Positions 8,155-54,749 of a stretch of DNA of 64,000 nucleotides are shown here, piece by piece. The stretch's first letter is position 1. Each line of letters begins with the position of its first letter. The stretch is taken from contig OZ076409.1 in the NCBI GenBank assembly GCA_964187785.1, forward strand, positions 22,880,001 through 22,944,000, in the 5' to 3' direction. Made by a program: the position numbers and the translations under genes. The notes under the pieces are model-generated. The model saw nothing but the letters and a program-made list of their open reading frames with translations, was not told the origin of the DNA and did no database searches. Source of the stretch: Amphiscolops sp. MND2022 (taxonomy: Eukaryota).

Positions 8155-8514
8155 CTAGTTGTGTTGACTGACGTCCTGGTAGAACTCGTTTAATTCAATG
8201 GGTCTGGGCTCAAGAACTGTGTTCTCGACGTCTATTCTACTCGAACCGTAATTCGTGTTATTGGGCGTTCTATCAGTCAATGAATCTATTTTCGATGTCA
8301 AATTTTCTATCATCTTAAGGATTGTCTGCTGGCCAGTCTTAGTATCCTTAATTCTTTTACTTACTGACTTCTCAATTTTCTCCGAAAAATCTGCAAAATC
8401 TTTGTCGGAAATACTGGGGGCTTTTTCCGATCTCATACTCGAAGATTCAGGCTCACCTATCGACCTAGTAGGCGACTCTCGTCTGGCTTTCCTTTTGGAA
8501 CTTCGCTCAGGCAT
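8155..8514 (-). CDS. LTR-encoded N-terminal Gag segment of the solo LTR (truncated at the LTR boundary)
   Basis: MPERSSKRKARRESP basic start followed by a coiled-coil-like segment, the same layout as MGNKRSRRSRRLETPSP (A) and MPSTRRQKAKARRSRE (B). The frame stays open up to the terminal CA. Confidence 0.6.
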   Translation of the reverse strand: MPERSSKRKARRESPTRSIGEPESSSMRSEKAPSISDKDFADFSEKIEKSVSKRIKDTKTGQQTILKMIENLTSKIDSLTDRTPNNTNYGSSRIDVENTVLEPRPIELNEFYQDVSQHN

Positions 8515-30457: not shown

Positions 30458-31578
30458 TGGTGACAGGAGCTAACCGACAACTCCATAGACACAGTTCGCA
30501 AAACCCACAGTCTCTAAACGACACAACAGGATCCCACGCAGCCCAGAACACAACAACTTCATCTGCAACACCCCTTGACCCAGTCAATCAAATTGCCCTG
30601 GCAATAGAAAAATTAGCAAACAAAAATGAATCACAAACATTCTTTCACCCAAAAAACACACTCACATTTAATGGAAAAAATGAGAAAAATGAAAAATTTG
30701 AGTATTTTGAGGACTTGTTCCACACAACACTCAGAATGCAACCGAATCTTACAGAAGACATGAAAATCAATCATTTCCACGCCCACCTGAGAGGCCTGGC
30801 ACTGAAAACGTTCAAAAACATACAAAGAACGCCCACAACAACCTTAGAAGACATTCTCAAAGTTTTCCGACGAAAATACGTAAAACCGGAGTCCAGCGCA
30901 TCTGCCAAACACAGATTCAATAGACTCTTCTTTGACCCCGAAAATCAAAAACTCCCGGATTTCCTTGAAGAACTTGAGGAAAGCGCTGAAAAAGCGTTCG
31001 GGACTAATGCGCACCAAATGATAGAGAATTTACTCTACGCTAAAATGCCTCCCCACCTCAAAAAGTCCATTAATCAAGCATACCTTGAAAACGGCACATA
31101 CAGCCAAATTGTCAAACATCTCGAACGAGAGATGGAACTCAATGGATTGGAATCCGATGAATCGCTGGTCAAAACACAGATGACCGCAACTAAAAAAGAA
31201 CACAAAACAGACAACACTAACAAAAAACAAACAAACAAAACCAAATCACAAACGCCAAAATCAGTCCCAAACAAGACCCTCAAAGATGGCCAATGCCGTT
31301 ATTGTAAAGAAGAAGGCCATATGATGACTGATTGCCCCAAATTAGCCAAACGACGTAAACTTCAGGAAGATCCAGATGCAGACAAATGCGAAAATTGTAA
31401 CACCCCCGGACACACTGAAGAAAATTGCTACTTTGGCGAGAATATGGAAAATCGCCCACCCAAATGGAACCTCACAGACGCCCAGAAAAAAGTAATCGAA
31501 AATTACAAACAAGCCAAAAAACCCATTAAACCTAAAATGGAACAACTCCAACAATCCTCTTCGAAGGATTTAAACTAG
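29899..31578 (+). CDS. gag: Gag polyprotein (559 aa), first 186 codons inside the LTR
   Basis: Capsid-like region (TFNGKNEK...FEDLF) and two CCHC knuckles, CRYCKEEGHMMTDC and CENCNTPGHTEENC; homologous to 55760-57448. Confidence 0.93.
   Translation: MGNKRSRRSRRLETPSPSREEGVETPNPGNMTLTNSNLVDQENLGPNILENQITEPSVISNEIQVWTQEMEKRNNDRIEKMREEIHNKFDAILREIKTSKNASTITNPRSESNETQNNQPSGSRNRSIGVRASENENSDSENEDNHPIRASNMHELRDPARPFCQNRFELDETLVSNEDSEEEDYHMVTGANRQLHRHSSQNPQSLNDTTGSHAAQNTTTSSATPLDPVNQIALAIEKLANKNESQTFFHPKNTLTFNGKNEKNEKFEYFEDLFHTTLRMQPNLTEDMKINHFHAHLRGLALKTFKNIQRTPTTTLEDILKVFRRKYVKPESSASAKHRFNRLFFDPENQKLPDFLEELEESAEKAFGTNAHQMIENLLYAKMPPHLKKSINQAYLENGTYSQIVKHLEREMELNGLESDESLVKTQMTATKKEHKTDNTNKKQTNKTKSQTPKSVPNKTLKDGQCRYCKEEGHMMTDCPKLAKRRKLQEDPDADKCENCNTPGHTEENCYFGENMENRPPKWNLTDAQKKVIENYKQAKKPIKPKMEQLQQSSSKDLN
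30458..30472 (+). promoter_or_regulatory. Primer-binding site (probably tRNA-Leu type)
   Basis: TGGTGACAGGAGCTA directly abuts the LTR-terminal CA and is identical over 15 nt in element B (56310-56324). The tRNA identity is inferred from similarity to TGGTGTCAGGAG. Confidence 0.8.
31569..31575 (+). promoter_or_regulatory. -1 ribosomal frameshift slippery site U_UUA_AAC
   Basis: X_XXY_YYZ heptamer in gag phase immediately before the gag TAG; the -1 frame is open from here into pol. Confidence 0.85.
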
Positions 31579-34500
31579 AAACGCCACGCCTTAACAACAC
31601 AAACGCCGAAATAAAACCACAAGATGACTGTCAGCATCAAGTGGAAACAATAAATATTCAACTTAAACGACCGACTACCGAACCTGAACCTACTCCTCCA
31701 ACTCCTGTTCAATCTGAAACTCCCAGCACCTCTCCAGATCAATACTACGAACTCTTGAGAGATGCACCAGACAACTACTTCACAAAACAACAAACCCATC
31801 CTGAAATTGACCCAGACCTCAATATTCACCACGATTCACCTATTAAAAATCATGTCACTATCAAAACTTCTTGCAATGATCAAAAACAACCCCTTCTAAA
31901 TGAAGACCTAGCTGAACACCTACAATTTGACAAAGAACGCAACTTGTCATACCTACCAATTTCAACATCCTTGACATTGAAGCGCAAACGACATATGTAC
32001 TACATTCCAATGGACTTCCAAAACCTCACACTTGATGGTCTTATTGACACAGGAGCTCTCACAAGTGCAATCTCCGAACAAGACCTCAATAAAATCAAAT
32101 TGCTCGCAAACGATGCGATAAAAGAAACTGGTCCTCCACCAAACTTTCAAATTATGGTGGCAAATGGACAACTAGAAGTCCCCATTGGTACAGTATTACT
32201 AGAGTTCGAAGTCGCAGACTTCATGTTAAAGGAAAACTTCATCATCATGAAAACTCTACCAAACCCGCTCATCGGATTGTGTTTCCTTCGCCGAAACAAT
32301 GCAATTTTCGATGTCACACAAGGAATCTTAACCTTTCCTTACCTCTCAATGCAACTGAAACCCGATACCCAAACAGCAATACGGCAAGCAACACCATTGT
32401 TTGCAGAAAATACCTACACACTCAGGCCAGGCGAAACACTCGCTATAGCAAGCAAAATGCCTCACCTGATGGACCATAATGCAACTGGAATAGTCACTCC
32501 ATCACAACAATTTGAAAACCACGATAGTATTTTTATTACAGCATCACTTAGCACAGTTAATAATAATTCTATCGGCTACCAGATCATCAATTTTTCAGAA
32601 TTGCCATATACAATAACCACTGACACCCATTTAGCGGATTTCAAAATTCTGACCCCAGAACAAATCAAACACATCCAACCAGTAGACCCAGCAGTACTAT
32701 CGTTTATGATACAACATGAAGAAACCACCGAAGTCTACATCAACGAACTCCTCAAAGTACCACAACCAAATTCTGAACAAGAATCGTACTGGTTTCCTAC
32801 CCCAGACGACCCAGGCGATCCCGCAACATATACTCCAATACAACAACGTATATACAATGAACTTCTTGAGTTAAAAGAACTCGAAAAACTGAATCCACAT
32901 GATAATGAAACATCCAGGAAATCATTCCTCTCAAATTTCGACTGGACAGATACAACACTTAGTTCAGAAGAACGACAAGAGATTGAAGAGATTCTGGTCG
33001 AATTCCACGACATTTTCGCCAGACATCGCTTTGATATCGGTATAAACCGCGAATTCAAAGTCAAATTAACACCCAACGACGACAGACCAGCTTACAGCCA
33101 GAGTCTGCCAACTCCAATCAACCTCAAAGATGACATCACAGTAGAACTTGCGCTTCTACACAAGTACGGTATAATCACAACTCTACCGTTTTCCAAATAT
33201 GCAAGCCCGATTTTTGCACAACGCAAACCAAACGGGCGCCTTAGACTCCTAGTTGACCTCCGGAAAATCAATAATCTTATCACTGAAGATTACGCCAATA
33301 ATAACCACCCGGTAAGCACCCTATCTGACGCAGCCCAACACATGGCAGGAAAAAAGCTTTTCTGCAAACTGGATTGCTCCCAGGCTTACCACTGCCTCCA
33401 AATGGCCGACTACCAATCTATCCAAATGCTCGCGTTTAACTTTGCAAGCAGAACATTTGCTTATCGACGCCTTGCCCAGGGTCTCAGTCGATCTCTCTCC
33501 GCATTTTCCAGCTTCATGAGAGAATACCTAGACAGAGCAATTAAAGCAGATCAATGTGCCCAATATGTCGATGATATCGGCATAGCAGCAAACGACACAA
33601 AACAATTGTGTATAAACATCAAAACTGTTTTTGAATGCATCCGGAACGCCGGACTGAAACTCTCCATGTCGAAATGTCATTTCGGAGTCAAACAAGTCGA
33701 CTTTTTGGGACGCACAATCACACCAGATGGAGTTGCCCCTCAAGCCGACAAAGTGAAAGATTTTTTGGCAAAACTCAAATTCCCAAAATCAAAAAAGGCA
33801 CTTCAAAGGTATATCGGATTCTTGAATTATTACCGAAACTATATACCTCGCCTTTCAGAACGACTCACCCCGTTTTTCAAACTCCTCAAAGAAACCTCCA
33901 AATTTTATGTCCCTACAAACTTGGTCGAAGACTTTACAAACCTCAATCAATTTTTGGAAAATTCTTGCCAACTCGCGCTGAAACAACCCTTGAAAGACAA
34001 ACAACTCATAGTCATGTCCGATGCAAGCTTCACAGCTGCAGGATATGCCATCATGATTGAAGACGATCCCAACCAGAAGCTTCAATCCAAACGAAAAACC
34101 TACGCACCCATTGCGTTTGGATCAAAAACGTTCAATCCAACACAAACGAAAATGTCAATTTATGCAAAAGAATTCCTCTCAATATATTTTGCATTCGTAG
34201 AGTTTGGACACCTCATGTGGGGGAGTACCTTCCCTGTCATCGTGTTCACGGATAATCGGTCTGTAACCCGGTTTTTTCAAACGAAAATGATTCCTCCAGC
34301 GCTTTGGAATGCATGCGATTATGTACTACAATACAATTTTGTAATCGCCCATGTAGCTGGATCGATGAACACAGCCGCCGATTTCTTATCTAGAACCGAA
34401 AGTAACCCAACCGAAAAGCTCGAAATGACAATTCGCAACGATATTCACACAAAAGCAATTGAAGTGATTATACAATCAACTGGAATTGTCGAAGAAGAAC

Positions 34501-36464
34501 AAATTTACATCCTTCCTGATGAAGAAATCGATGAAAATCAACTATGGGAAGAAAAACAAAACACTCGCAATCAAGCACAAAACGAAACTCACAACGACCC
34601 AGAGAACGACGTCTCTGAATTACAGCAATTTCACAAACCCACATCCGGATTGATCTCCTGCTCCTCTGGACACTTCAAGGACAATGCGAGGATACGCCTT
34701 GAACAGAACAATGACATAGTCCTTCGAAACCTGAGAGCCAAAATAGAAGGCGAACCGTTTGATGAAAACGAATTAGCTTCCGATTTCAGATATCAACACT
34801 ACTTACAAAACATAACACGAATCGAGATTAAACACGAAGTTCTCACACGCAAATACTATACAGATACAGGAATGATCTCGCATTATCAAATCCTCTTACC
34901 AATCCAACTTCTTGAAGAACTACTTCAAGCCCTCCATGGACATAACTCAAACCATCCAGGAATTACCAAGATGATTCAAGAAACACGTCAAAAATATTAT
35001 TACCCATGTATGGCCAAATACATAAAGAAATGGGTCAGTAATTGTCAGATTTGTATACAAACAAAACGTATCAACAATGATCTCCTCAGAACCGAACTCC
35101 TTAATTGTCCCGAATGGGACCTTGGACCGGAAGACATCTTACAGATGGATATTTTGCCAAACCTCCCCCCAAGCGGAGGCTACGATCACATCATCACAGC
35201 AATAGATGTCTTCTCAAGGTATTTGTTTGCTTATCCTGTGACTCGAATTACCGCAACAGCAGTTTCAAAAGTCATAATGGATATCTTATGCAAACACACC
35301 TACCTTCCAACAACTATAATCACGGATCTAGGCACTCAATTCAACGCACAAGTCACTCATGAAATTGCGGCAGTGCTTGGAATCGAAATGAAACATGCCA
35401 CAATGAAACATGCACAAACCATAGGACTCTTAGAAAGAACCCATGCCTCAGTTAAAACACACCTAAAAGCCGCCACAGGCGAATTCAGGAACAACTGGCA
35501 CAAATATCTTCCTCTAGCAGTCCTTAATCATAACACAACATACCATGCATCACTCGGTTGTGAACCCTCACGAGTTTTCCATGGCCGCATACCACACAAT
35601 ATCCTTGACTACAAACTTGGATACAATCCAAATCCGAGGTATCAACCACAAACTGACATTGCAGAAGAAATTCAAAAGCGCATGAGAACACTTTTAGACC
35701 AAACCAAAAAGAATATCATGCAATCTTACCTAAAATACAAGGCCTACTACGATAGAAAAGCAAAAGCAGCCCAGTTGGAGACAACAGATTACTGCTATAT
35801 TCTTAATCCAAAAGCCGATACACAAGCAACGAAAATACCATTCCGAGAATTCAGATGGTGTGGACCTTATAAAGTTGAAAAAGTGCTCCCTAACAATAAC
35901 TACATTGTGAGGAGACTTGGCACAAATAAAACCCAACTACTACATCGGATTCGTTTGCGGAAATTCACACCGCAGGCCCCTTTAGCAGACATTTTTGTTC
36001 GCGAAACCGACTGGCAAAAAGATGATCAAATGACTATAGCAAATGATGATCTATATGCCCAATCATGGAACACGAATTTTGGAGCAAATCCATTTGATGA
36101 CATTCCCTCAGATGCAATACACAATACTGAGGATACCGAATATGTCCCAATTCAAATACCCGACAATAGCCGCCCACCCTCCCCAGTATCTTCAAAAAAT
36201 AGCGGGGGGAGCCCAGTGGATCAGACCACTGAACCAGATCAAAATCACGGAAATCATGCTGATGAAATCCCACAACAATCAAATGATGATAATACCCAAA
36301 AAACCCGAAAAGATGTAAATAACGCAACAAACAATGATAATCAAAAAACCCCAGAAAACTCCCAAAATACCCCATTGCAAGAAGAACCCATAAATACCCG
36401 TGGTGAAAAATACAACCTACGTCCTAACCCCAACCCAAATTACTCTGACACTTATAGATACTAA
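31569..36464 (+). CDS. pol: Pol polyprotein: aspartic protease, dUTPase-like segment, RT, RNase H, integrase (intact)
   Basis: LIDTGA; KLDCSQAY and YVDD; SDASF/KEF/TDN/AADFLSR; H-x5-H...CQIC, MDIL, TDLG, LER. Uninterrupted frame. Confidence 0.97.
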   Translation, partial: FKLETPRLNNTNAEIKPQDDCQHQVETINIQLKRPTTEPEPTPPTPVQSETPSTSPDQYYELLRDAPDNYFTKQQTHPEIDPDLNIHHDSPIKNHVTIKTSCNDQKQPLLNEDLAEHLQFDKERNLSYLPISTSLTLKRKRHMYYIPMDFQNLTLDGLIDTGALTSAISEQDLNKIKLLANDAIKETGPPPNFQIMVANGQLEVPIGTVLLEFEVADFMLKENFIIMKTLPNPLIGLCFLRRNNAIFDVTQGILTFPYLSMQLKPDTQTAIRQATPLFAENTYTLRPGETLAIASKMPHLMDHNATGIVTPSQQFENHDSIFITASLSTVNNNSIGYQIINFSELPYTITTDTHLADFKILTPEQIKHIQPVDPAVLSFMIQHEETTEVYINELLKVPQPNSEQESYWFPTPDDPGDPATYTPIQQRIYNELLELKELEKLNPHDNETSRKSFLSNFDWTDTTLSSEERQEIEEILVEFHDIFARHRFDIGINREFKVKLTPNDDRPAYSQSLPTPINLKDDITVELALLHKYGIITTLPFSKYASPIFAQRKPNGRLRLLVDLRKINNLITEDYANNNHPVSTLSDAAQHMAGKKLFCKLDCSQAYHCLQMADYQSIQMLAFNFASRTFAYRRLAQGLSRSLSAFSSFMREYLDRAIKADQCAQYVDDIGIAANDTKQLCINIKTVFECIRNAGLKLSMSKCHFGVKQVDFLGRTITPDGVAPQADKVKDFLAKLKFPKSKKALQRYIGFLNYYRNYIPRLSERLTPFFKLLKETSKFYVPTNLVEDFTNLNQFLENSCQLALKQPLKDKQLIVMSDASFTAAGYAIMIEDDPNQKLQSKRKTYAPIAFGSKTFNPTQTKMSIYAKEFLSIYFAFVEFGHLMWGSTFPVIVFTDNRSVTRFFQTKMIPPALWNACDYVLQYNFVIAHVAGSMNTAADFLSRTESNPTEKLEMTIRNDIHTKAIEVIIQSTGIVEEEQIYILPDEEIDENQLWEEKQNTRNQAQNETHNDPENDVSELQQFHKPTSGLISCSSGHFKDNARIRLEQNNDIVLRNLRAKIEGEPFDENELASDFRYQHYLQNITRIEIKHEVLTRKYYTDTGMISHYQILLPIQLLEELLQALHGHNSNHPGITKMIQETRQKYYYPCMAKYIKKWVSNCQICIQTKRINNDLLRTELLNCPEWDLGPEDILQMDILPNLPPSGGYDHIITAIDVFSRYLFAYPVTRITATAVSKVIMDILCKHTYLPTTIITDLGTQFNAQVTHEIAAVLGIEMKHATMKHAQTIGLLERTHASVKTHLKAATGEFRNNWHKYLPLAVLNHNTTYHASLGCEPSRVFHGRIPHNILDYKLGYNPNPRYQPQTDIAEEIQKRMRTLLDQTKKNIMQSYLKYKAYYDRKAKAAQLETTDYCYILNPKADTQATKIPFREFRWCGPYKVEKVLPNNNYIVRRLGTNKTQLLHRIRLRKFTPQAPLADIFVRETDWQKDDQMTIANDDLYAQSWNTNFGANPFDDIPSDAIHNTEDTEYVPIQIPDNSRPPSPVSSKNSGGSPVDQTTEPDQNHGNHADEIPQQSNDDNTQKTRKDVNNATNNDNQKTPENSQNTPLQEEPINTRGEKYNLRPNPNPNYSDTYRY

Positions 36465-36682: not shown

Positions 36683-39600
36683 TCAGTTTTTCTTGCTTTT
36701 CGGAGCTTTAGCAACCACTCTCTTTGAAGTGCCCTCTTGGGTCGACTCTGAGCAACGACTAAGACTAACATTAAGTGTACCCAATGAAGGATCAGGGGAT
36801 GGGGAACTATGTACACTGCTGCGGCGACTCACACTTGGAGTTGTTGAAGTAGAGGAAACGGTAGTTTTCTCAGCACGTAGCACAGCTTGTCGGTAACCAG
36901 TTTCCAATTTACCTTGGAGAGAAGTTTTCCGGGCATTGCTTCCCTTCAGGAAATTCCAAACCGAGAACTTTTTGTCCAATAACAAATCAGTCCCACGTCC
37001 CAACAGGCGAAAAGCACGGCTGATCGCCTTGGAATTTCGAAATAAGCTGGAGACGTGTGGCACAGTCTGATATGCTACCTGAAGACTAAACACACAAGAT
37101 TCAAACGTATGTTTATCCGACTCAAGATCTGGCATAGGTACCTTGAATGATGGCGGTATTTCCACGAATGGAACTAAACAAAGACACGAATGTTTGAATA
37201 GTCGCATCAACTCGGGTCTACACTGGATTTCATAATGTTCAACGACAAACTGAATCCAATCATCATGCTCTGGTACGGGGCTTGTCCTCAGCTTGGTTAC
37301 GAAGGAACGATACTGGCTTATCTGCTTCACCTTGTCACTAGAAGAGAATAGTCCGGTAGAAACAAAATGTGAAGACAACTTTTCAATCGCATCAACATAC
37401 ACGTCTTCTGGGCTCTCGAGCATCACCGAGGAGTCAAAAGCAGAGAGTCCCCGCAACAACTTTGACTTTACAATCCCGTGACCCATCAACTGTTTGCAAT
37501 AAGCCTTGCAGAAACTCACTGACTGGTCAATAAAATTGCTTGGCCGAGGGAGTTTACTTGAATACACCAAACGGTGAAAATCCTCATTCAAGACGAAGTC
37601 GTCTGCTGTTTTAAACGGCAAATTAGTTGAATCCAGGTCCAAATTAAGATAAGAATCCCATTCCGAGATATTTCCCAAAATGCTGTCAGGAAGAATGTTC
37701 TGCATCTGACTGTAGATAAAAACCGCAAATTGGTTGTATATGCGGAACCCTCCATCAAGTCGTTTCTGTATGTCCGAAAACGCCGAAGTATCTAAAACAC
37801 ACAAAAATCATCTATTATAGAAACCACGCATGCCTTCATGAAGAAGAGAACTAATCACGCATAGTACACGCTTTTGATAAGCTTGATTAAACACATCATA
37901 TAGCTCAATGTATAAACACCAGGGCTATAGGGCTTTACGCGGTTCAGAGAACAATGAATACTCGACACTATGTTGAGTAGGAGATATTGACTATGCGGTC
38001 ACTATGCGGAACGAGTAGTAGTGATTATACGTCACTATGCGGAATCAGCAATGCAGCTGGATTTGGGAGTTCTGAGCAAATACGATTGGTCATACGCAAT
38101 TATGCGGATTGAGAACTGATGATTACTCGTGATTATTCAGAAGAAAACAAAAAGCACGTGTCACTTATGATGAGTTAAATGAATGACAATCCTGATGTTC
38201 GAAGTTTTGGAATGAGATGGTACTTATAGTACATTACTCCAAAAAGAGGAAAACAACGTAACAAAAGATGAAACCGCTGTTATAGTATAAAGATAAATTG
38301 ACTAACAATGGTCAAGGACACATCTGATAATGAACAGACGGGCCAGATAAGCTGTGTCTAGACGAAAACACTCGTCCAGCGTATTGGGCTGAAAGGGAAA
38401 AGATTAAGAAATGGATTCAGATTACAATGGAAGGAGCTGGGATAATAATACCTACCTCTCTCATATGGAATCGATAGATAGGAAGGCAGGCAACTTGTTC
38501 TAGGTGATCCTGCACGTGATTCCAGTTGTTGGAAAGCTGCTCAATCAAAGAAGAAGCTTCAGAAAGGGAATAGCTCAAGTTTGTCACACACTAAACAAAA
38601 TAGGGGAAGATGTGCAAAACATCACAATGGAAAAGAAAAAAACCAAAGTTGAAAACCTACTTTGTGCAGAAGGGGTAATTTCTCCAGCCAATCTCTGTCT
38701 AGCGCAGTCCGCAATTTCATCAGTAAATAATCCAAGATAGAACGAAAATCGTGTCGTTCTATGACCTGAGCGGTAGGGCCTGCTAATGTTCGCTCAAATT
38801 CGTTCGGTCCAAATGGGTTGACAGTCGAAGGGGGCTTTAATCCGGGCAAACAAGACGATAGACAATCATTTAATTTGTCACTGAATCCAATGAGGGATAC
38901 ACAATTTGGGAATGTTTCGAACAGACTGAGAAAGGAAGCCACGAGAGAAAGGACTTTCCTTGGTAATAACATTCCCCGAGGGGCGCCCCCTATGCACACT
39001 CGATACAGCACATTCTCGGCCCAAAAGCAAAGAATAACGTATGTGGCAACAGGAGTATGTTGTATGGCCAATGAATAGTACCCCGAAGAAGATATAGACC
39101 GTACACAATAGTCCATGAGTTCTCGGAACATGTAGACTATGATACCCTGCAAACAAAGAAAGTGTTAAGGTATTGGAAAATGGGGAAACCTTCAACTTAT
39201 AGTGTAACTTCAAGGTAATTGAAACTTTTAACGAAGGAGAAAGAATATGGTTAAATCATTGTGTGTTAAAAAATTCACAAAGAAACTTACGAAAAGACGT
39301 TCATTGCTCCAGTTCTGATACGATAGCCGATCACTTGCTGTAAGTCTGACCAACTCGTCATACATTCCGGTCAAACTGGCGACGTTACCTCCGTGCCTTA
39401 ACCCAAATTCCAGAATGTTTATCTGCGAGAATATCTTTTCAGTTGGGGTTGTGGAAGCACTAAAATCGGGTACTGAATCTTGTCCTACTAGAGGTCGGTA
39501 CGTATCCAATTGAGGAGGAATTGGGTAGGTGTCCTTCGCCTTCTTTTTGGCTTCCTGTAGTGAAATTCCAAGCAATTCATGTTCGTCTTTGTCGTAAAGG

Positions 39601-40994
39601 GGCATTCCTGGAATCTCCATGCGGATTCAGTGTTCCCTTACTAGGTGAGATTCGGACCTGTAATGGGATATCAGTTCCAGACTCCCACGACTCATCAACG
39701 ATAATTCAACACGGCACACCCTACACCACCACTTGTAAGGTGATAACTCTTGATCCAGTGGACCTGTGGCAGAGAATTTCAAAACTGGGTGTCTTTTAAA
39801 CATACTACCAGTTAAGGAGTATCTAGGGCGGCGTCGTTTCCCCCGTACTTCAGGGAGATTACGCTCTGAGTAAGTCGGCGCAGTTCTTGAAGTAGATTGG
39901 ACAAGTGCTTCTTCTTGGCTTGATGTAGTCAATAAAGCAGATTGCGGTACATCATCCACCAAAGTAAGTGCCATAGTGTCTCCACATCCAGTCTCTTCTC
40001 CGGTGATGAAGGCTTGTGGGATCCTCCCAAGGAAATTGTGGAGAAATAAGACCTCCTGTCGAGTTACACTAACATTGGGGAACTCTGATCTGGGAATGTT
40101 ACCCAAGCCTTCCGTGTCATGACCAATTGTTTGTCCTTGGTCATTAGCCGTGCTAAGAGAAACCGTGGTTTCGGGTATCTGCCCGGTAGTGAATCCTGTT
40201 GCACCATCCTCACTAGGAGTGACGTACTGTTCAAACTGAAGAGAATGTATTTGAGAATTACCCTGCGTGATGAAATCATCAAGTACCCCTTGAGGGAACG
40301 TCGTCATTGGCTCATTCATAGCTTTCGTTGGGGTAACGTTCACAAATGGCGGCGAATTACTTCGTGAAGCTAAATCCCCTTTTTGACTTGGGTTACCCTG
40401 GGAAGTAACTCCAGGAGGCTCTGTGGATGTATGTCCACTCGGTGGCTCACCTGCTACTTCTTCATTGATCTGCAAAGTTGGGGTATTGGGGGTATCCACT
40501 TCCTCTGTAGCCTTAGAAGTCTGTGGAGTCACAACGTTCAAAGATGTGTAGACTTTGGCAGGAGAGTTGTTTGAAGTGGTTTGGACGTTTTGGGACGATC
40601 CTTGTTCAACTGAAACAATTGATCTGTTGATTAACAAAAGAACAGATTTCACAAGCAATAACCGTTCTTAACTGCCTTGAACCGGACGCGGGGACAGGAA
40701 ATAAAATTGGAACGGAAGTTGTTTTAAAATTGGAAGCGGAAACGTTTCAAAAAATTTGAACTTGACAAAGATAATAATCTTGTCATTTTCTTTTTGCTAG
40801 CCTGGCCAGCTTTGCAAATCAACCAAATTCAAAACAAATCAAAATGAAACAGAATTAAAACGAAATACGTTGAACTTACGGGATGACGTCTCAGGCGGCG
40901 GATCACTGTGCCAGAAGTCGTCACGTTGCAGAGGATCATAACTCTTCCGGGATCTTCTTTTCCCTCCGGGGCTTCCCTCTTGTGGTGAATCCAT
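36683..40994 (-). CDS. Antisense six-exon gene, about 1081 aa, Zn finger plus hAT-transposase-like body; one in-frame TGA at 39627-39629
   Basis: Exons 40994-40880, 40609-39291, 39146-38661, 38590-38456, 38388-38307, 37791-36683. All five introns are GT..AG with pyrimidine tracts; phases 1,0,0,0,1 join in frame (3246 nt, 1082 codons). WWCRVC...LISHYRSESH motif. The last exons are homologous to element B. Confidence 0.82.
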
Positions 40995-42440
40995 TCTTTT
41001 TTACAGAACCAGGAAGTAATTCAGGAAAATTCTGATGCAAGCTCAGGGTATTTGTTCCAGAAGTGAACGAGGAGAAAATACAATAGATCAGAGTAAGGAA
41101 ATTGAAAACAGATAAAAGGGGAACTAAAGATGAAGAATCCAAGATTTGGAAGATTGTGTTTAATATACTAGAACTTTAACTGAACAGACTAAATGAACTG
41201 GTAAGAAACTTGAAGATTCAAAAGAAACAGTAAAAGGCGTGGCGTAACGTAAATGCAATAGACAAAGGCAAAAGAGCAAGTGAAACAATTGTGCGCAAAT
41301 ATGCGTAGAGAATACTGCAATATGATTGGCTGTTCAAATGTCAATTACGTCTGCCAGCGTAATTGATTGACTCATCTGACTTCTGCCAACAACGTTGGTA
41401 TACATATATGCTGAATGGAATGAATTAGAAAGCGAGAGTATGCGGCAGTATGCGGATCTACCACCAACGACCACTCGACAATATGCGTATTACTGATTTA
41501 AATTATGCGGCAGTATGCGGATCTACCAATGATGGATATACGGCAGTATGCGGATTGAGCATTGACGTATACTCGACATTTAGCGGTTTTCGCTGTATGC
41601 ACGACAGAGATGAATTAACACCGTAGACCAACAAGAATGAGCAAATGGAGTGATATTACGTAATGGAACTGAAGAAACTGTGTGTTTACCACAACTGAAA
41701 GTTGAGTGGCAATATTGATATACTGTATACGTGCTTAGTTACCCTCTTTAATGACGTTTAGCCTGTGATACCAATGCCCATTTGGAACCAATATGTATGT
41801 ATGTAATAATTTGAACTGTTGGCGTTTTCTGAAACCCATAAATCATTTACCAAGAGATACTGGAATTCACCCGGAACATTAATTAACTGTACTTGCATTT
41901 TAAATGCAGGACTAACATTATTGGGTGTCTTTCCTAATGATAAAATTCAACTCACTAACGGACCTTAGATTAGATTGGAACACGTTTATTAACATCCTTT
42001 TCCTTTTATAAAATAGTCATGTAAAATCAAATAAATTGATTCTGAATTACTTTATTGAATATTTTCATGAAAGTATTTTGTTTTCAGCATCCCTGATATC
42101 AAGTCAAATTTGTTTATGTACGATTTAAATACTGGTGGAAGGTTAAGAAGGGTGATGATAAAAGGAAATCAGTTGGAGTGCTAAACGTGTTACCTTTTAT
42201 GGAAGTTGTTTATGACCAATTGTAAAAGGAACTCGTGATATGAGTCTAGGTGGAAACCCCATGTAAGGGTGTTTAGGAACCTAAAATCATGACTCTCAAT
42301 TTTTCCGCGGGTTTTCCGCTGAAAACGAAAAGTGCGAGAAACTCCATCATCATATGGTCCATATTAAACTGTGATTCAGTTGCTTTCAATTTCGAACTCT
42401 ATTTCTGTTCATCTATAAATTTTCAACTAAAACCTGAAAA
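40995..42440. promoter_or_regulatory. Candidate internal bidirectional promoter region between the antisense gene and ORF X
   Basis: Non-coding interval between two divergent ATGs, with clustered TATGCGG / ACTCGACA motifs (41436-41590) also found in the LTR. Function is inferred. Confidence 0.5.
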
Positions 42441-43496
42441 ATGGACTCACTGCAATTTAATCTCGATGAGGATCTGGGCTACTCACCCATCTCCCCTGAC
42501 GTGATAGACATCTCCAGTGAATCTGGGGAAGAGTTCATTGTTGAACCTGGCAACATTGCCCAGCTAGACGAAAAGTTCAGGGTCAATACAATGGGATCAA
42601 ACATCATGACAGCTTTTGTGGGCTCTGCAACTGCTTCTTTGTTCCCCCCTTCAAACTACGTGGGACAACAAGAATCCATCAATACTGCAGGAACCCACAT
42701 CGAAAGGGAAATCATGGAGTTGATAGAGGAGGGCCCTTCCTCTTCTCCAGCATCTCCGCTGTCTTTCATCGATTCAGAATTCGAAGGACCGGGTACTTCT
42801 CCAGTAGCAATTGCCGCAGAACCCAGAGCACAGCTTAATAATTATGGTCGGCCAACTGCAGCAATACTGCCCACACCAAGGGTCCCATTGCAACCGCCAA
42901 ATGAAACTGTTAGACCAGTGCCGACTTACCCTTCAAACTATGTGCAGAATGTCCCTAATTCTCACCAAGCACAGACAGTGGACACAAGCACAGAAGGGGC
43001 TACTAACGTACCAACATATGAACTACAAGGAATTTATCCGCAAGCCGCATTCATCCCAGAAGAATTAACACACCCTGTTACGAATGACATTACACCAGTA
43101 GTGATACATCTGCCCCCTAGAAACATGGGAATTGTCCCCGCCAACTTCAATGGTCAATTCCACCAAGTAGTCCAAGCTGGATTTCCATTCAACATTCTAC
43201 ATAGTACTAACATCCTTATGATACCAGGCAATGAGAGACAAAATTTCAGATTGTTCCCAACAGTTATGCCAAACGTCTCCGGATATTGTGACTGGTGTGG
43301 CCGTACCTTTGATCAAGTCGCACTGGAAACATTGGGGGACTATCTTGGCGCTACCGCTTACAACGAGGAAACAGTCAGGGACCGTGGGGTGCGTTCTAGA
43401 GCCTTCATAGATGGTTTTGAAGCGGCGTTGTTTATCTTCAAAAATGCAGGTCTGTCGCGGCCACAGCGTTGCGATGGGTCCGGTGTGCACCAGTAA
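42441..43496 (+). CDS. ORF X, unknown accessory protein (351 aa), ends inside the 3' LTR
   Basis: ATG-initiated long ORF in AT-rich DNA: acidic/Ser N-terminus, Pro/Gln-rich middle, C-terminal CDWC...CDG region. No obvious signal peptide or TM helix. Confidence 0.75.
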   Translation: MDSLQFNLDEDLGYSPISPDVIDISSESGEEFIVEPGNIAQLDEKFRVNTMGSNIMTAFVGSATASLFPPSNYVGQQESINTAGTHIEREIMELIEEGPSSSPASPLSFIDSEFEGPGTSPVAIAAEPRAQLNNYGRPTAAILPTPRVPLQPPNETVRPVPTYPSNYVQNVPNSHQAQTVDTSTEGATNVPTYELQGIYPQAAFIPEELTHPVTNDITPVVIHLPPRNMGIVPANFNGQFHQVVQAGFPFNILHSTNILMIPGNERQNFRLFPTVMPNVSGYCDWCGRTFDQVALETLGDYLGATAYNEETVRDRGVRSRAFIDGFEAALFIFKNAGLSRPQRCDGSGVHQ

Positions 43497-44973
43497 GAAA
43501 ACAAACAACGCTTGTTAAAAACTTCCAAAACCCAAGGACTCATTTGCAAGTCATGTAGTTTGTTTGTTTTGTAAATATTTGTTGTAATCAGGGTCATTTA
43601 GTTGATTTATTTTGTAAAACTGATGTCTTAAAATGATTTGCCAAACCTTAAGAGGATTTAATGATGTTTTTAATTATTCCTGATGATCCTAATGCAGTGC
43701 TAATAGTTCATTTTAATTAAGCAGTACCAATTGTATACGACATTGTGCGTTTTGAGTGCTAATGAGTATGCGGTACTATGCGCATATGCATCTTTCTGAT
43801 TTTCATTATGCGTCACTATGCGGTTTGAACAGTGACATTTACTCGACACTATGCATCTTTCTAACTTTCATTATACGTCACTATGCGGTTTGAACAGTGA
43901 CATTTACTCGACACTATGCATTTTTCATTATACGTCATCCTGCGGTCTGAGGAACAATGAGTGCTCGGTACTATACGTTTTTCGCTATGCTTGCTTTAAT
44001 ATGAAGGATTAACTTTGCATTTCCATATACAGTAGTATAAGTCCATGATATATCATTGTTTAACACCTTTCTAGGGTATTATAAACCTCGTTATCATTTC
44101 TGAATGTCATGGAAGGTAACTCATGAGATATAAATAGGATGACGACATTCTGACGAAGTGCTATTATTAGTTTTTCCTAAGAATGATGCTTGTAAAATTG
44201 CGTGTCATCTTTTGTAATTTTGTACTTTCTTGGGGAAAAAGGAGCTAACACAACTGATATAACTTTCTTCAGAACCAGTTTGTTCTCTGATAACGATTAC
44301 AATTTTTGTGCTACATTTTGGGATCTTTGAACATTTCAAATTGATTTCCTTTGAATATTTGCCTTCAATTCAAATTCTTGACCCTGCAAAACAATCATTT
44401 TCTCTTGAGCGAAAATGGGCAATAAGAGAAGTAGAAGGTCTAGAAGACTAGAAACTCCTTCCCCTAGCAGAGAAGAAGGTGTTGAAACTCCAAACCCAGG
44501 TAATATGACTTTAACTAATTCTAACTTAGTTGACCAAGAAAACTTAGGTCCCAATATCTTGGAGAATCAAATAACTGAACCCAGCGTAATTAGCAATGAA
44601 ATACAAGTTTGGACACAAGAAATGGAAAAGAGAAACAATGACAGAATAGAGAAGATGAGGGAAGAGATTGATAATAAATTCGATGCAATCTTAAGAGAAA
44701 TCAAAACTAGTAAAAATGCATCTACAATCACAAACCCAAGATCAGAATCTAATGAAACACAAAACAATCAGCCGTCGGGATCCAGAAATAGGTCTATAGG
44801 AGTTCGCGCATCAGAAAATGAAAACTCTGATTCTGAAAATGAAGATAATCATCCCATCAGAGCATCGAACATGCATGAATTAAGAGACCCAGCAAGACCC
44901 TTTTGCCAAAATAGATTTGAACTAGATGAAACATTAGTTCCAAATGAAGACTCTGAGGAGGAGGATTATCACA
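43453..44973 (+). repeat. Element A 3' LTR (contains a second copy of the gag leader ORF 44415-44996)
   Basis: Direct repeat of 28937-30457, followed by TSD GCTGT. Confidence 0.97.
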
Positions 44974-47968: not shown

Positions 47969-50900
47969 TGTGTAGAGGACATACGAACTTACTTAGACTG
48001 TAGAAACTAATTAGTTTGCTTCCCTATTTGTATATATTTATTTATTAATACTTGATTAAAGTACCAGCCCTGTCACATAAGCGCAGAAGAAGCTATACGC
48101 TTAGTGATACAAAAGAATAGTGAAAAACAGCTAAATTTTAAAACATTGAGTTTGAGTTCCTTCTCTTTACGAGTATATCAGGAATACAACATGGCGCAGT
48201 CAGAATAACGATCAAAGTTACAAAAGATCATTGCGAAAGCCTAATGGGCGACAACACAAACGCCACCCAAAGGAGGCACCAACATTACGTCGGTGGAATT
48301 ACAACTAAGTGAACAACTGCTACCAAACGACACGATGAACCGAACCGCAGAACGGAGAAGCACCCAGAAGCTTACCAATCCAACACTGGAAAAGAAAGGC
48401 TCCACCAATGTGGTAGTGGAAGTTTGTACAAAATATAAAAATGACAAAGGACCTAGACCTATCAACAAAGACAAACAATTAGGAAATACTGCCACAATTC
48501 CGTGATCAATTAGAAACAGAGATGAAAGACAATATTCTGTGGGCAATTGGACAGAATGCTATCACGGAACTGACCAAAACGGTTAGAGATAGAGTGAGAG
48601 AGCCGAGCTCACTACCGTTGTACAAATTACATACATCATTCCGACTACATTTCACACCGGAGAGAAACGTTCAACACAGTACAGCCGACTTTTCGACTTG
48701 AAACGGAAAGACGGAGAGTCCGCGGCAGACGTCCGGAAGTGGATATTGGAAGTAGATAAAAACTGCAAATTCGAGACAATAACCGCAGAAGAACTCTTGG
48801 CATCAATATTCCTATCCGTAATCGGCAAATCGATAGGAGACTACGACTAAAGAAAAAAATCAGAAAAAGTGACATGTCGGTGGAGGGAATTACCGAAGCA
48901 TTACATGAGTACATGTACGAAAAACAAAACGACTCACCAGAAACAATATGAGAAGAAAATCCGATATCTCAATAAAAGAAAGACCAGAAGCACCAAAAAC
49001 CAACGGATAAACCGGGTAATTTCAAGAAACCAGACTGCTATAGATCCGGAGCCTCCAACTGGTTACGAAATCATGAAGAATAAGCTAGGGGAAGGAATGT
49101 TCGCGAATTGTTGCAGAACAAACAAAAGAATAAACCGCATACAATAACAGGAAACAAGTAGTGCGGAAGAAGACTATTGGTCACCGTCACAACACAATCC
49201 ATTCCGAAAATCAGAAGATCCATTCAACACGCCCAATGAAGAAGGACGGTCCGGAATTCTTCACTCTCACCGACAGCGGATTACCGGTAATTTTGATACC
49301 GAATTCACGGTTTAACAAAATAACAACATTGAAGCCGCTTGAAACCGAACATAGAGATGTAAATGACAACGGGATGAGGTTCGAAGGAAAATCGCAAAAG
49401 TAGAAAAAGATGGGAAACAAAAAATGTTGAAAATCCTGATAACGATAAAAAAACCAACTCACTATTAGGCTTAGCTTAGACTGGATGGGAAAATTGGGAA
49501 TAACGCTGGGTACTGGTAAAACCGATCCACGAATAAATTACATAACTGAAGATCCGGACATAACAGTACTCAAAAAAAAGTTCAAAATGTTTTCGTTGGA
49601 AATCACACCGTAAAGGACTCGAAGTACAGATACCATTAAAAGAGGACGCAAGACTGATACAGCAAAAAGGAAGGCCAATACCAAATCACCTACAGCAATT
49701 GGTCGGAAAGAAAGTGACAAATTAATGAAACAAGGCCATATCGCGAAAACAAATAGCATTGATGAAATTTGCTTTGGTAGCACGGCCGTAATCAATGTTA
49801 AGAAGGACACGTCGAGAAAAACTACTCTGGTTTCGCGAAAGTTGAATGAAATCACCAAAATGAGAAAGGCACAAACGCCTTACAAGGAGGAATTTTTTTC
49901 CAGAATTTCCAGAACGATTGTGGAACAATCGGCAAATGAAATATGGATATCAAAGTTTGATTTGGACTACGCTTGCGGGCAACTACTATTGTCCAGGAAG
50001 CCTGAAAACTGTGCATATTTGCCGTAACCGGTGGACATTTTACAATTACTACCGTTTCCTGAAAAGATTTTACGGGTAGCGGATATTCCGACAATTTTTC
50101 AGGAGACAATCGACCAAACACTGGAGAACTTTCATCTGGCATGGTTGTATGACATAATCGTCGGAACAAAGGGCTCACAAAAACAACACAAAAAAGAGTT
50201 AGTAGACGTTTTAACCTGACTAGAAATAGCTGGATAGAGCCTCAGCGAAAACAAATCCGAATTTTTCAAAACAGAGATTGAATGGATTGGCCATAAACTA
50301 GACCAAAACGGAATCAGATCACTACAGGACAAGCTGATGGCAGTTAAAGATTTGAAACATCCCAATAACGAGAAAGAACTCAAATAGTTTCTGGGGGCCA
50401 TCCAATATCTGTACAATTAGATAAACAAACGGATAGTCTGAGACAACTTCTTAAAAAGATACCGAATGGTTATGTACAGAATAACACACGCAAGCGTTCG
50501 AAAATCTCAAACAAATGATCAAGGAGTACTCATGTGTCGTAACTACAACTCAGATTATCCAAAAGTTATAACAAACGACGTCAGCACTAAAGGCCTCGGT
50601 GCAACGCTTTGGAAAGAACAGCTGGACGGAAAGCTAGAATCAATCGGTTTTGCAAACCGATTTTGATCAGATACCAAGAAAATATGCAATAAACAAACTC
50701 GAATTGCTAGTCATTGTCTGGGGACTAGAACATTGTCGTTTAAACATTTACGGCAAACCGATAGAAATGCTCACGGATCATCACGCACAAGAACCACTGA
50801 TAAAACGAAACCGGTATAACAAAACGTATAGCGCACAGCTAACGAGTTGGCTGGACCGATTAGCACATTTCACCATTAATGTGAACCAGATCGCAGGCAA

Positions 50901-53900
50901 GCATCTAGCGCTCACGAATTACTTGAGAAGAAATCCGTCAGCACCGCTACAAACAGACGACGCGTACGACGAAGAATGCGTCATCATTAACACCTTACCG
51001 CATTACCGAAGTTCATTTCCAAACACGGTTGCCTTAGCAACCACGTCGACTAATCTGAATGAGGAACGAACGAATATGATGAACGCAAAATAAACAACGA
51101 ACCACGGCCACAACACGCGCGTGAACAAACCCCTATTGACTGCCTTAACAGAATAACATTCACACACAACTTGACAGTTGACAATCTTGCAGCCATAGAT
51201 TCATCAGCCGAAACTACACAATTGATCCAAAGATGGAAAAAGATCGTGAAACTCGGAATGTATCGCATTACCGGAGGAAAACGGAAGCAATGACACGTGC
51301 CAAAATTACGGAATGAAATGAGAGTAATCGAGGTGAGATTACAACAAATAATCCGGGGCCGTGAACGAGGAGACTTGAGGCAAAGAATTGGTCCTCAACA
51401 CAGCGGAGGCTTTCAAACCCAAACAAGACGGTCGGAGCAATTGACGGTAGACCCCTTCTGGGAAATGGACCGACCGTCACCGGCCCGACAACAAGACATG
51501 CCAGGACCGTCATCAGCCACAACGAGTCCAGAGCAGTACGCCCCAACGCCGATAGAAGAAGGCGAATTCAACACGCCCAATGAAGAAGGACGGTCCGGAA
51601 TTCTTCACTCTCACCGACAGCGGATTACCGGTAATTTTGATACCGAATTCACGGTTTAACAAAATAACAACATTGAAGCCGCTTGAAACCGAACATAGAG
51701 ATGTAAATGACAACGGGATGAGGTTCGAAGGAAAATCGCAAAAGTAGAAAAAGATGGGAAACAGAAAATGTTGAAAATCCTGATAACGACAAAAAAACCG
51801 ACTCACTTATAGGCTTAGCTTAGACTGGATGGGAAAATTGGGAATAACGCTGGGTACTGGTAAAACCGATCCACGAATAAATTACATAACTGAAGATCCG
51901 GACATAACAGTACTCAAAAAAAAGTTCAAAATGTTTTCGTTGGAAATCACACCGTAAAGGACTCGAAGTACAGATACCATTGAAAGAGGACGCAAGACTG
52001 ATACAGCAAAAAGGAAGGCCAATACCAAATCACCTACAGCAATTGGTCGGAAAGAAAGTGACAAATTAATGAAACAAGGCCATATCGCGAAAACAAATAG
52101 CATTGATGAAATTTGCTTTGGTAGCACGGCCGTAATCAATGTTAAGAAGGACACGTCGAGAAAAACTACTCTGGTTTCGCGAAAGTTGAATGAAATCACC
52201 AAAATGAGAAAGGCACAAACGCCTTACAAGGAGGAATTTTTTTCCAGAATTTCCAGAACGATTGTGGAACAATCGGCAAATGAAATATGGATATCAAAGT
52301 TTGATTTGGACTACGCTTGCGGGCAACTACTATTGTCCAGGAAGCCTGAAAACTGTGCATATTTGCCGTAACCGGTGGACATTTTACAATTACTACCGTT
52401 TCCTGAAAAGATTTTACGGGTAGCGGATATTCCGACAATTTTTCAGGAGACAATCGACCAAACACTGGAGAACTTTCATCTGGCATGGTTGTATGACATA
52501 ATCGTCGGAACAAAGGGCTCACAAAAACAACACAAAAAAGAGTTAGTAGACGTTTTAACCTGACTAGAAATAGCTGGATAGAGCCTCAGCGAAAACAAAT
52601 CCGAATTTTTCAAAACAGAGATTGAATGGATTGGCCATAAACTAGACCAAAACGGAATCAGATCACTACAGGACAAGCTGATGGCAGTTAAAGATTTGAA
52701 ACATCCCAATAACGAGAAAGAACTCAAATAGTTTCTGGGGGCCATCCAATATCTGTACAATTAGATAAACAAACGGATAGTCTGAGACAACTTCTTAAAA
52801 AGATACCGAATGGTTATGTACAGAATAACACACGCAAGCGTTCGAAAATCTCAAACAAATGATCAAGGAGTACTCATGTGTCGTAACTACAACTCAGATT
52901 ATCCAAAAGTTATAACAAACGACGTCAGCACTAAAGGCCTCGGTGCAACGCTTTGGAAAGAACAGCTGGACGGAAAGCTAGAATCAATCGGTTTTGCAAA
53001 CCGATTTTGATCAGATACCAAGAAAATATGCAATAAACAAACTCGAATTGCTAGTCATTGTCTGGGGACTAGAACATTGTCGTTTAAACATTTACGGCAA
53101 ACCGATAGAAATGCTCACGGATCATCACGCACAAGAACCACTGATAAAACGAAACCGGTATAACAAAACGTATAGCGCACAGCTAACGAGTTGGCTGGAC
53201 CGATTAGCACATTTCACCATTAATGTGAACCAGATCGCAGGCAAGCATCTAGCGCTCACGAATTACTTGAGAAGAAATCCGTCAGCACCGCTACAAACAG
53301 ACGACGCGTACGACGAAGAATGCGTCATCATTAACACCTTACCGCATTACCGAAGTTCATTTCCAAACACGGTTGCCTTAGCAACCACGTCGACTAATCT
53401 GAATGAGGAACGAACGAATATGATGAACGCAAAATAAACAACGAACCACGGCCACAACACGCGCGTGAACAAACCCCTATTGACTGCCTTAACAGAATAA
53501 CATTCACACACAACTTGACAGTTGACAATCTTGCAGCCATAGATTCATCAGCCGAAACTACACAATTGATCCAAAGATGGAAAAAGATCGTGAAACTCGG
53601 AATGTATCGCATTACCGGAGGAAAACGGAAGCAATGACACGTGCCAAAATTACGGAATGAAATGAGAGTAATCGAGGTGAGATTACAACAAATAATCCGG
53701 GGCCGTGAACGAGGAGACTTGAGGCAAAGAATTGGTCCTCAACACAGCGGAGGCTTTCAAACCCAAACAAGACGGTCGGAGCAATTGACGGTAGACCCCT
53801 TCTGGGAAATGGACCGACCGTCACCGGCCCGACAACAAGACATGCCAGGACCGTCATCAGCCACAACGAGTCCAGAGCAGTACGCCCCAACGCCGATAGA

Positions 53901-54749
53901 AGAAGGCGAATTCAACACGCCCAATGAAGAAGGACGGTCCGGAATTCTTCACTCTCACCGACAGCGGATTACCGGTAATTTTGATACCGAATTCACGGTT
54001 TAACAAAATAACAACATTGAAGCCGCTTGAAACCGAACATAGAGATGTAAATGACAACGGGATGAGGTTCGAAGGAAAATCGCAAAAGTAGAAAAAGATG
54101 GGAAACAGAAAATGTTGAAAATCCTGATAACGACAAAAAAACCGACTCACTTATAGGCTTAGCTTAGACTGGATGGGAAAATTGGGAATAACGCTGGGTA
54201 CTGGTAAAACCGATCCACGAATAAATTACATAACTGAAGATCCGGACATAACAGTACTCAAAAAAAAGTTCAAAATGTTTTCATTGGAAATCACACCGTA
54301 AAGGACTCGAAGTAGAGATACCATTGAAAGAGGACGCAAGACTGATACAGCAAAAAGGAAGGCCAATACCAATTCACCTACAGCAATTGGTCGGAAAGAA
54401 AGTGACAAATTAATGAAACAAGGCCATATCGCGAAAACAAATAGCATTCATGAAATTTGCTTTGGTAGCACGGCCGTAATCAATGTTAAGAAGGACACGT
54501 CGAGAAAAACTACTCTGGTTTCGCGATTACCGCATTACCGAAGTTCATTTCCAAACACGGTTGCCTTAGCAACCACGTCGACTAATCTGAATGCGGAACG
54601 AACGAATATGATGAACGCAAAACAAACAACGAACCACGGCCACAACACGCGCGTGAACAAACCCCTATTAACCGCATTAACAGAATAACATTCACACACA
54701 TCTTTTCAAATTCACAAATTCCAAAAAGCACCAAACTTATAATGGATTG
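47969..54749 (+). mobile_element. Decayed Ty3/Gypsy element with short 5' LTR (about 47969-48191), interrupted at 54750 by element B
   Basis: TG...CAACA followed by PBS-like TGGCGCAGTC at 48192; RT remnants (SKFDLDYA, WLYDII) and RNase H remnants (NDVSTKGLGATL, ELLVIVWGLEH, LTDH) broken by stops and frameshifts. Confidence 0.8.
49222..54700 (+). repeat. Tandem amplification, 2344-bp unit: 49222-51565, 51566-53909, and an internally deleted third copy from 53910
   Basis: Identical ORFs offset by 2344. The junction GAAGAAGGCGA|ATTCAACACG occurs twice. The third copy lacks about 1156 bp after 54526. Confidence 0.95.

Follow-up and report, generated by a model that had tools for sequence, protein, structure and literature searches.

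A conserved accessory gene overlapping the 3' LTR of a Ty3/gypsy retrotransposon from Amphiscolops sp., and its possible regulatory function

In the 64,000 nucleotides of Amphiscolops sp. MND2022 analysed here (contig OZ076409.1 of assembly GCA_964187785.1, positions 22,880,001 to 22,944,000 of the forward strand, referred to as the window), a 16-kb Ty3/gypsy LTR retrotransposon, element A, carries a real accessory gene, ORF X, whose length and conservation go far beyond chance and whose tail, judged from the codons kept among its relatives, crosses the start of the 3' LTR in a fixed register. As a tentative reading, which we hold to be somewhat short of probable, we propose that ORF X could be expressed separately and, as a SUMO-binding dimer, activate transcription or relieve silencing at clusters of the motif TATGCGG, probably via an antisense protein; that it is expressed, binds SUMO, has this partner and works in this direction is what we infer from sequence, structure models and analogy. 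Control of the type proposed for ORF X is otherwise known mainly from complex retroviruses, and the gene may bear on how animal retrotransposons counter host silencing. The Gag and the flanking repeats are reminiscent of acoel worms. LTR elements are plentiful in acoel genomes (PMC9911081).

Element A and the family of ORF X

Element A has LTRs with TG...CA ends, a target duplication and a primer-binding site (PBS), and is laid out as follows.

28937-30457 (+): 5' LTR, 1521 bp, containing the first ~186 gag codons
29899-31578 (+): gag, with a zinc knuckle and a weak Ty3 capsid match
30458-30473 (+): PBS, directly 3' of the LTR and within gag
31536-36464 (+): pol, with protease, RT, RNase H and integrase in Ty3/gypsy order
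42441-43496 (+): ORF X, accessory gene of 351 aa, with its last 13 codons and stop within the 3' LTR
43453-44973 (+): 3' LTR, 1521 bp, followed by the target duplication GCTGT

By self-comparison, the two LTRs differ at 5 positions over 1521 bp (99.7% identity), the target-site duplication is the 5-bp GCTGT, and element A was inserted recently. In both element A and a second element of the window, element B, the PBS abuts the CA of the LTR without a spacer and lies within gag, with its start placed alike in element B (56310); the window contains no tRNA gene. The start of gag lies within the LTR in all three long LTRs (29899-30457, 55766-56309 and, on the minus strand, 8514-8160), covering about 120-186 codons. 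Ty1 gag likewise begins within the LTR, on a smaller scale. Among solved structures, the RT region of element A (33036-34400) is matched best by foamy-virus RT with 113.5 bits, which outscores the next match, Ty3 RT, with 96.6 bits.

A preliminary description of this DNA, made from its letters, had reported a 351-aa frame that crosses the LTR start at 43453 and stops 44 nt inside. Re-derivation of the coordinates agrees with it, placing the ATG at 42441 and the end of the stop codon at 43496. That the frame is a real gene with relatives could be substantiated by searching 1.84 billion proteins with its last 98 aa. This recovered 115 representatives, at identities as low as ~31%, one of them false (P0227, an unrelated repeat protein, which was removed). 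The full-length search returned 96 clusters at E<=1e-3 with 39-100% local identity, all unnamed and reaching up to 51 members; 50 of the 96 are at least 330 aa long, and together they represent 823 member sequences, fragments included. We regard ORF X as being under selection because 96 clusters (823 sequences) were recovered, 50 of them at this length. No match was found in Pfam or among PDB sequences, the Atlas gave no usable match, and the viral contigs searched held no relative. The sole metagenome match (L001) was discarded as a 22-residue chance match on a bacterial contig. Many members of the most distant clusters (P0207, P0237 and P0246) lie on contigs of ~0.8-1.8 kb, barely longer than the ORF, and could be mRNA-derived. 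In the literature searched, which lay mostly outside subscription journals and Repbase-type entries, we found no description of element A or ORF X.

Composition, motifs and predicted fold of the ORF X protein

The acidic N-terminus and the Cys-bearing C-terminal domain noted in the preliminary description were both recovered, from composition and from the conserved Cys: residues 1-130 contain 22 D/E versus 4 K/R, and residues 131-270 are Pro-rich. Three regions of the protein stand out.

42501-42533 (+): SUMO-interacting-type motif VIDISSESGEE (aa 21-31), with a near-invariant Ser-Pro just before it
42696-42785 (+): conserved, short, putative amphipathic acidic helix (aa 86-95) and hydrophobic-acidic SFIDSEFE (aa 108-115), from column counts, the helix from a low-confidence model
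43287-43472 (+): C-terminal domain with CxxC, two helices and a third Cys, predicted to homodimerise via helix 2

SUMO-interacting motifs (SIMs) are defined by a hydrophobic core with an acidic/Ser stretch and are carried by many viral proteins (PMC12751080). VIDISSESGEE satisfies this definition, its V/I/L core leading into acidic and Ser residues, and is patchy in distant members. A SIM-type motif was detected in 44 of the 49 members covering the region, versus a mean of 3.5 and a maximum of 9 in shuffled sequences, and is also present in the distant relatives P0367, P0231, P0259, P0232 and P0254, whose N-termini otherwise align poorly; a similar motif was judged by eye to be present in P0391-P0393. 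A strict pattern matches 8 of 37 distant members and 5 of 26 below 50% identity, where shuffling reaches a maximum of 6-7, and it also matches 26 of 101 proteins of the antisense family described below. A relaxed pattern, which was composed post hoc once the sequences were known, matches 43 of 50 full-length members versus 1/101 antisense-family proteins, and 6 of the 37 distant members versus a shuffle mean of 0.1. It should be noted that many of these 37 are fragments, and that 14 of them form a single cluster, P0246, that has neither SIM nor CxxC. SIMs are loose motifs; by its sequence, the N-terminal motif of ORF X, newly recognised here, fits a conserved SUMO-interacting type. The residues of the acidic helix at aa 86-95 and of SFIDSEFE make both of them candidates for activation or for binding a partner. 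Modelled at full length, the protein comes out unstructured (pLDDT 41.8), though the short motifs are strongly kept.

Structure prediction of the C-terminal 86 aa yielded a model of CxxC and two helices with a mean pLDDT of 80.8. Modelled as two copies with zinc, the domain reached a dimer score of 0.55 versus 0.02 for the best control, with contact agreement of at least 62% and pLDDT of at least 60. In calibration, the dimer mark was reached by 21/30 microbial and 17/29 eukaryotic true pairs and by none of the single chains (0/23 and 0/30); this calibration is small and ligand-free, and only 1/7 eukaryotic pairs without an older solved relative passed. The modelled interface runs along A321, G325 and A329 of helix 2, which are among the best-kept residues, and a homodimer of the CxxC helical hairpin is the state predicted by the models. 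Fold searches with the C-terminal model returned nothing significant in Foldseek (best E 3.3 in the PDB and 0.68 among viral structures) and generic hairpins in VIA (best Z 5.8). The domain is not basic overall, with 10 acidic and 8 basic residues, and a basic nuclear-localisation signal was found in 1 of 50 members; both results count against the regulator proposed below. A RING domain, as in the SUMO-targeted ubiquitin ligases RNF4 and ICP0, was considered and excluded, the family having just three conserved Cys and a helical hairpin model.

Coding sequence at the LTR edge and the polypurine tract

The edge of the LTR was followed in 146 relatives that span the C-terminal domain, taken from 203 examined. 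Residues at the edge are well kept, with G337 in 111/135, L/V/M338 in 121/135 and S339 in 106/134, and G-[L/V/M]-S corresponds to codons able to spell the TG-TC of the LTR start. The features that bear on this overlap and on priming are the following.

8160-10096 (-): solo LTR of a third family, 1937 bp, with target duplication ACTAG
43440-43452 (+): candidate degenerate polypurine tract (PPT) AAAAATGCAGG plus a 2-nt spacer, within K-N-A-G-L codons
54752-54835 (+): first 28 codons of the element B 5' LTR, C-terminal tail of an ORF X homologue

Read as codons, the LTRs begin SRPQRCDG in element A, SQASACDG in element B (54750) and SQPHLSCEFC in the solo LTR, and the preliminary description had taken this likeness to suggest that the U3 overlap is conserved. 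This stands for the lineages of elements A and B: the first 28 codons of the element B LTR, which likewise starts TGTC, are 18/28 identical to the C-terminus of relative P0259 (pairwise E 1e-11). Of 288 family proteins, 7 match LTR B in frame, starting at base 3 in six cases and at base 6 in the other. A further match to LTR B, the eighth, lies on the opposite strand at a different place. For the solo LTR the claim did not hold up, as 0/288 family proteins match it and its Cys lies one codon later. Frame-shifted relatives were also compared with LTR A past the ORF X stop, and none of the 288 match there. The ORF X of element B itself would fall past the end of the window; the position at the 3' LTR is direct in element A only and indirect for B and P0393, and the PPT and LTR position of the relatives is read from their protein tails. 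P0393 is an ORF X relative fused in frame to a sequence that resembles the N-terminus of Gag (33% to Gag B over 51 aa, with E 3e-5), a pattern that a deletion within a 3' LTR would be expected to leave.

The LTR of element A is overlapped by coding sequence at both ends, with the tail of ORF X at the U3 end and the head of gag at the U5 end, so that the attachment site and the PPT lie within codons. The overlap may be a form of genome economy, in which the TG-TC end of the LTR and a degenerate PPT would be written into the G-[L/V/M]-S codons. Genes overlapping U3 are known in retroviruses; bel2 of foamy viruses overlaps U3, and HIV nef and MMTV sag are frames that span the PPT or U3 and carry cis-signals within their codons. 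Nef and Sag differ from ORF X in being unrelated proteins, and their carriers are retroviruses with env.

The 16 nt preceding the 3' LTR of element A are TTCAAAAATGCAGGTC, and GAAAGAGGGGA precedes the 3' LTR of a small element, both as quoted in the preliminary description. Its statement that element A lacks a canonical PPT is correct in that an uninterrupted purine run abutting the 3' LTR is absent; the non-canonical priming suggested with it was overstated, as the tract AAAAATGCAGG (43440-43450) contains 9/11 purines and ends in GG 2 nt ahead of the TG of the LTR, and PPTs share no consensus and may contain pyrimidines (PMC3185511). From its sequence we read AAAAATGCAGG as a degenerate PPT that occupies the usual position under coding constraint and is weak as a tract. 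Plus-strand priming away from the LTR edge, or by a mechanism that does without a PPT, appears unlikely to us. In its favour, two pyrimidines interrupt the tract, a better purine run occurs within the last 350 nt, at 43233, and 11-mers as purine-rich make up 4.3% of those in the ORF and 6.4% of those in the window; among the 26 relatives without K334, moreover, four have P-P-G-V or S-P-G-V codons, which permit just a short run of ~5 purines. Against it, the GG end lies exactly at the edge, G337 is kept as given above, and the element copies precisely, with clean TG...CA ends and a target duplication. A codon test, for which 104 of the 146 rows were retained for their in-frame tail, adds that residue 335 allows a codon with purines at its first two positions in 76 of the 78 A-type relatives, a weak and non-specific result because other polar positions behave alike.

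Motif clusters, the antisense gene and the possible function of ORF X

Between pol and ORF X, element A contains antisense frames and non-coding motif clusters, one of which recurs in the LTRs.

29251-29397 (+): U3 motif cluster, 3 TATGCGG and 2 ACTCGACA, repeated at 43767-43913 in the 3' LTR
36683-37807 (-): antisense 374-codon frame, 102 related clusters, with a lead to the hAT-transposase C-terminal region
37960-38107 (+): internal non-coding cluster, 4 TATGCGG, same motifs as U3
38622-40667 (-): antisense frames with a C2H2-like zinc finger (Pfam match below cut-off) and GT-AG splice-like signals
41439-41578 (+): internal non-coding cluster, 5 TATGCGG, between the antisense gene and ORF X

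Element A contains 14 copies of TATGCGG, where 0.81 would be expected, and the remaining 47 kb contain 3; 12 of the copies in element A fall in three same-strand non-coding clusters, one in U3 and two internal, whose TATGCGG copies span 37992-38107 and 41439-41553. It is the only 7-mer with at least three copies in all three non-coding regions, and 0/2000 control triples share any such 7-mer; the counts within a single cluster are inflated by local duplication. Frequently the motif forms a 10-nt-spaced direct repeat, with ACTCGACA alongside. The solo LTR has a repeated U3 motif of its own, GGCCTG, which is present nine times there and absent from LTRs A and B. By sequence and by analogy, the TATGCGG clusters, newly recognised here, look like foamy-virus response elements, and the cluster at 41439-41578 is a candidate bidirectional internal promoter or enhancer; the clusters could also be host-factor sites or relics of a U3 duplication.

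A counterpart of the antisense 374-codon frame is present in element B (62614-63798, minus strand, 24%). From these sequences, the antisense gene is likely a captured DNA-transposase derivative in both elements, and the zinc-finger frames are broken by an in-frame stop (39627-39629) in the element A copy. Neither ORF X nor the antisense gene matches a Pfam family at cut-off. The antisense regions (36683-40667 and 62614-63798, both minus strand) appear to be multi-exon, and the Atlas places part of them near hAT dimerisation/FAM200 clusters (0.91, a lead only). A linkage proxy built on matching contig sizes of ORF X and antisense relatives (9/95 against 102) was set aside as uninformative because contigs reach up to 1 Mb.

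We propose a model in which an internal promoter near 41.4-42.4 kb would give rise to a short ORF X mRNA that terminates within the 3' LTR. Through dimerisation of its C-terminal hairpin, the protein would display two disordered acidic arms bearing the SUMO-interacting-type and activator-like motifs. The dimer would be guided to the TATGCGG clusters, both the one in U3 and the two internal ones; the antisense zinc-finger/hAT-like protein is the most likely guide, and targeting by ORF X alone is less likely. At the clusters the dimer would counter SUMO-dependent silencing or recruit co-activators, which would constitute a feed-forward loop in the style of foamy-virus Tas. The preliminary description had suggested that ORF X could be a transactivator, an idea to which the conserved SIM-type motif, the predicted dimer and the response-element-like motif present both in U3 and in internal non-coding sequence lend indirect support. 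SUMO-dependent silencing is a plausible target because SUMO is required in flies for piRNA-guided silencing (10.1101/533091). In its fullest form, which we regard as doubtful, an animal gypsy lineage would have independently evolved a circuit in the style of complex retroviruses, with a hAT-derived antisense zinc-finger protein reading family-specific arrays in U3 and internal regions and a dimeric SUMO-binding ORF X overriding SUMO-dependent silencing; if true, animals would have a sequence-specific anti-silencing system encoded by a retrotransposon. The ORF X family offers handles in a mutable SIM-type motif, a small dimer domain without recognised fold and candidate response elements that differ between families.

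Other functions of ORF X have to be weighed against the proposed targeted regulator. It could be a general counter-defence decoy that sequesters SUMO or SUMOylated silencing factors of the piRNA/SetDB1 type and is not targeted to motif clusters, which we consider unlikely: the conserved SIM-type motif and the predicted dimer would provide multivalency, ORF X presents no evident DNA-binding surface and viral SIM proteins are described as working in this way (PMC12751080), and a decoy would leave the element-specific motif clusters unexplained, although the antisense protein alone could own them. A role as replication cofactor, active in the trafficking of particles, in entry into the nucleus or in anchoring the integration complex on SUMOylated chromatin, rather than as a transcription regulator, would draw on the conserved short linear motifs of the disordered arm (YGRPTAAILPTPR, PTYP and, in 25/66 members, P[TS]A[PA]) and on the nuclear-import role suggested for plant accessory ORFs (PMC7264820). 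It seems distinctly unlikely, as no exact late-domain motif is conserved in ORF X and as the acidic, activator-like composition and the shared cis-motifs suit transcription better.

The sign of the effect cannot be read from sequence, and SIMs are, in the literature searched, equally typical of corepressors and viral antagonists, so that ORF X might also be a negative regulator that controls copy number, its SIM recruiting SUMO-dependent repressors of the host in the manner of Daxx-like corepressors. We take this to be improbable, since 99.7% identity of the LTRs and clusters reaching 51 members point to recent activity and great abundance of the family, which suit a pro-transposition role somewhat better. 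By its place on the sense strand between pol and the 3' LTR, which is that of env, and by its conserved cysteines, ORF X could finally be read as a divergent Env or small cell-fusion protein. The preliminary description had judged that it does not look like Env, and we can support this judgement, as ORF X is not an Env because none of 66 members has a membrane-length hydrophobic stretch: a hydropathy scan found no 19-residue segment at or above 1.6 (0/66; maximum 1.50, ORF X 1.14). Furin sites are present in 2/66 members and an N-terminal Gly2 in 0/50, and the N-terminus is acidic, which leaves an Env reading with hardly any probability.

Comparison with known systems places tas/bel2 of foamy viruses among those nearest to the proposed regulator. 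ORF X shares with it the location, as an accessory gene that follows pol/env and precedes a long 3' LTR, and would share the acidic type of regulator. Foamy-virus Tas response elements are found both at the internal promoter and in U3 (PMC3798896), and element A likewise has related elements at internal sites and in U3, here as a matter of sequence layout alone. In contrast to foamy viruses, element A is an env-less Ty3/gypsy element with a zinc-knuckle Gag, ORF X carries a SIM-type motif, and the element has an apparently spliced second gene on its antisense strand. ORF X gave no Pfam, PDB-sequence or fold match to foamy Tas/Bel, Nef or other retroviral accessory proteins. The VANC proteins of Arabidopsis VANDAL DNA transposons bind arrays of a motif in one orientation in non-coding transposon DNA in a family-specific manner (PMC5735166), and a short family-specific, non-coding motif arrayed in one orientation is also seen here (TATGCGG in LTR A, GGCCTG in the solo LTR); unlike ORF X, VANC is a plant DNA-transposon protein that acts on DNA methylation, and no homology between the two was found.

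Extra ORFs are common in LTR retrotransposons, with functions mostly not established (PMC7264820), and extra sense and antisense ORFs, mostly without function, are well known in plant and rotifer elements (PMC7264820, PMC11963269, PMC5408684). Gypsy elements described in PMC11963269 and PMC7264820 share with element A the kilobases of sequence after pol, antisense ORFs with their own promoter, repeats and a suspected regulatory role, to which element A adds a sense gene overlapping the LTR. For animals, non-Env ORF3s are reported in bdelloid LTR retrotransposons along with extra 3' ORFs in gypsy-like elements (PMC5408684), and an internal promoter in the Tor elements of Oikopleura (PMC4402516). 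These bdelloid and Tor ORFs differ from ORF X in encoding enzymes, membrane proteins or Env, and none of those described is a SIM-bearing regulator. In the literature searched, we found no precedent for a SIM-type protein with a predicted dimer domain that occurs together with a transposase-like antisense gene, probably captured, and with family-specific cis-arrays common to U3 and internal regions.

Two further observations concern the remainder of the window. Element B contains, at 58181-58500 between protease and RT, a dUTPase-like domain (Pfam above cut-off), and the same position in element A gives no match. At 49222-54526, a 2344-bp unit with fragmented retroelement-like frames is repeated ~2.3 times at 98-99.7% identity.
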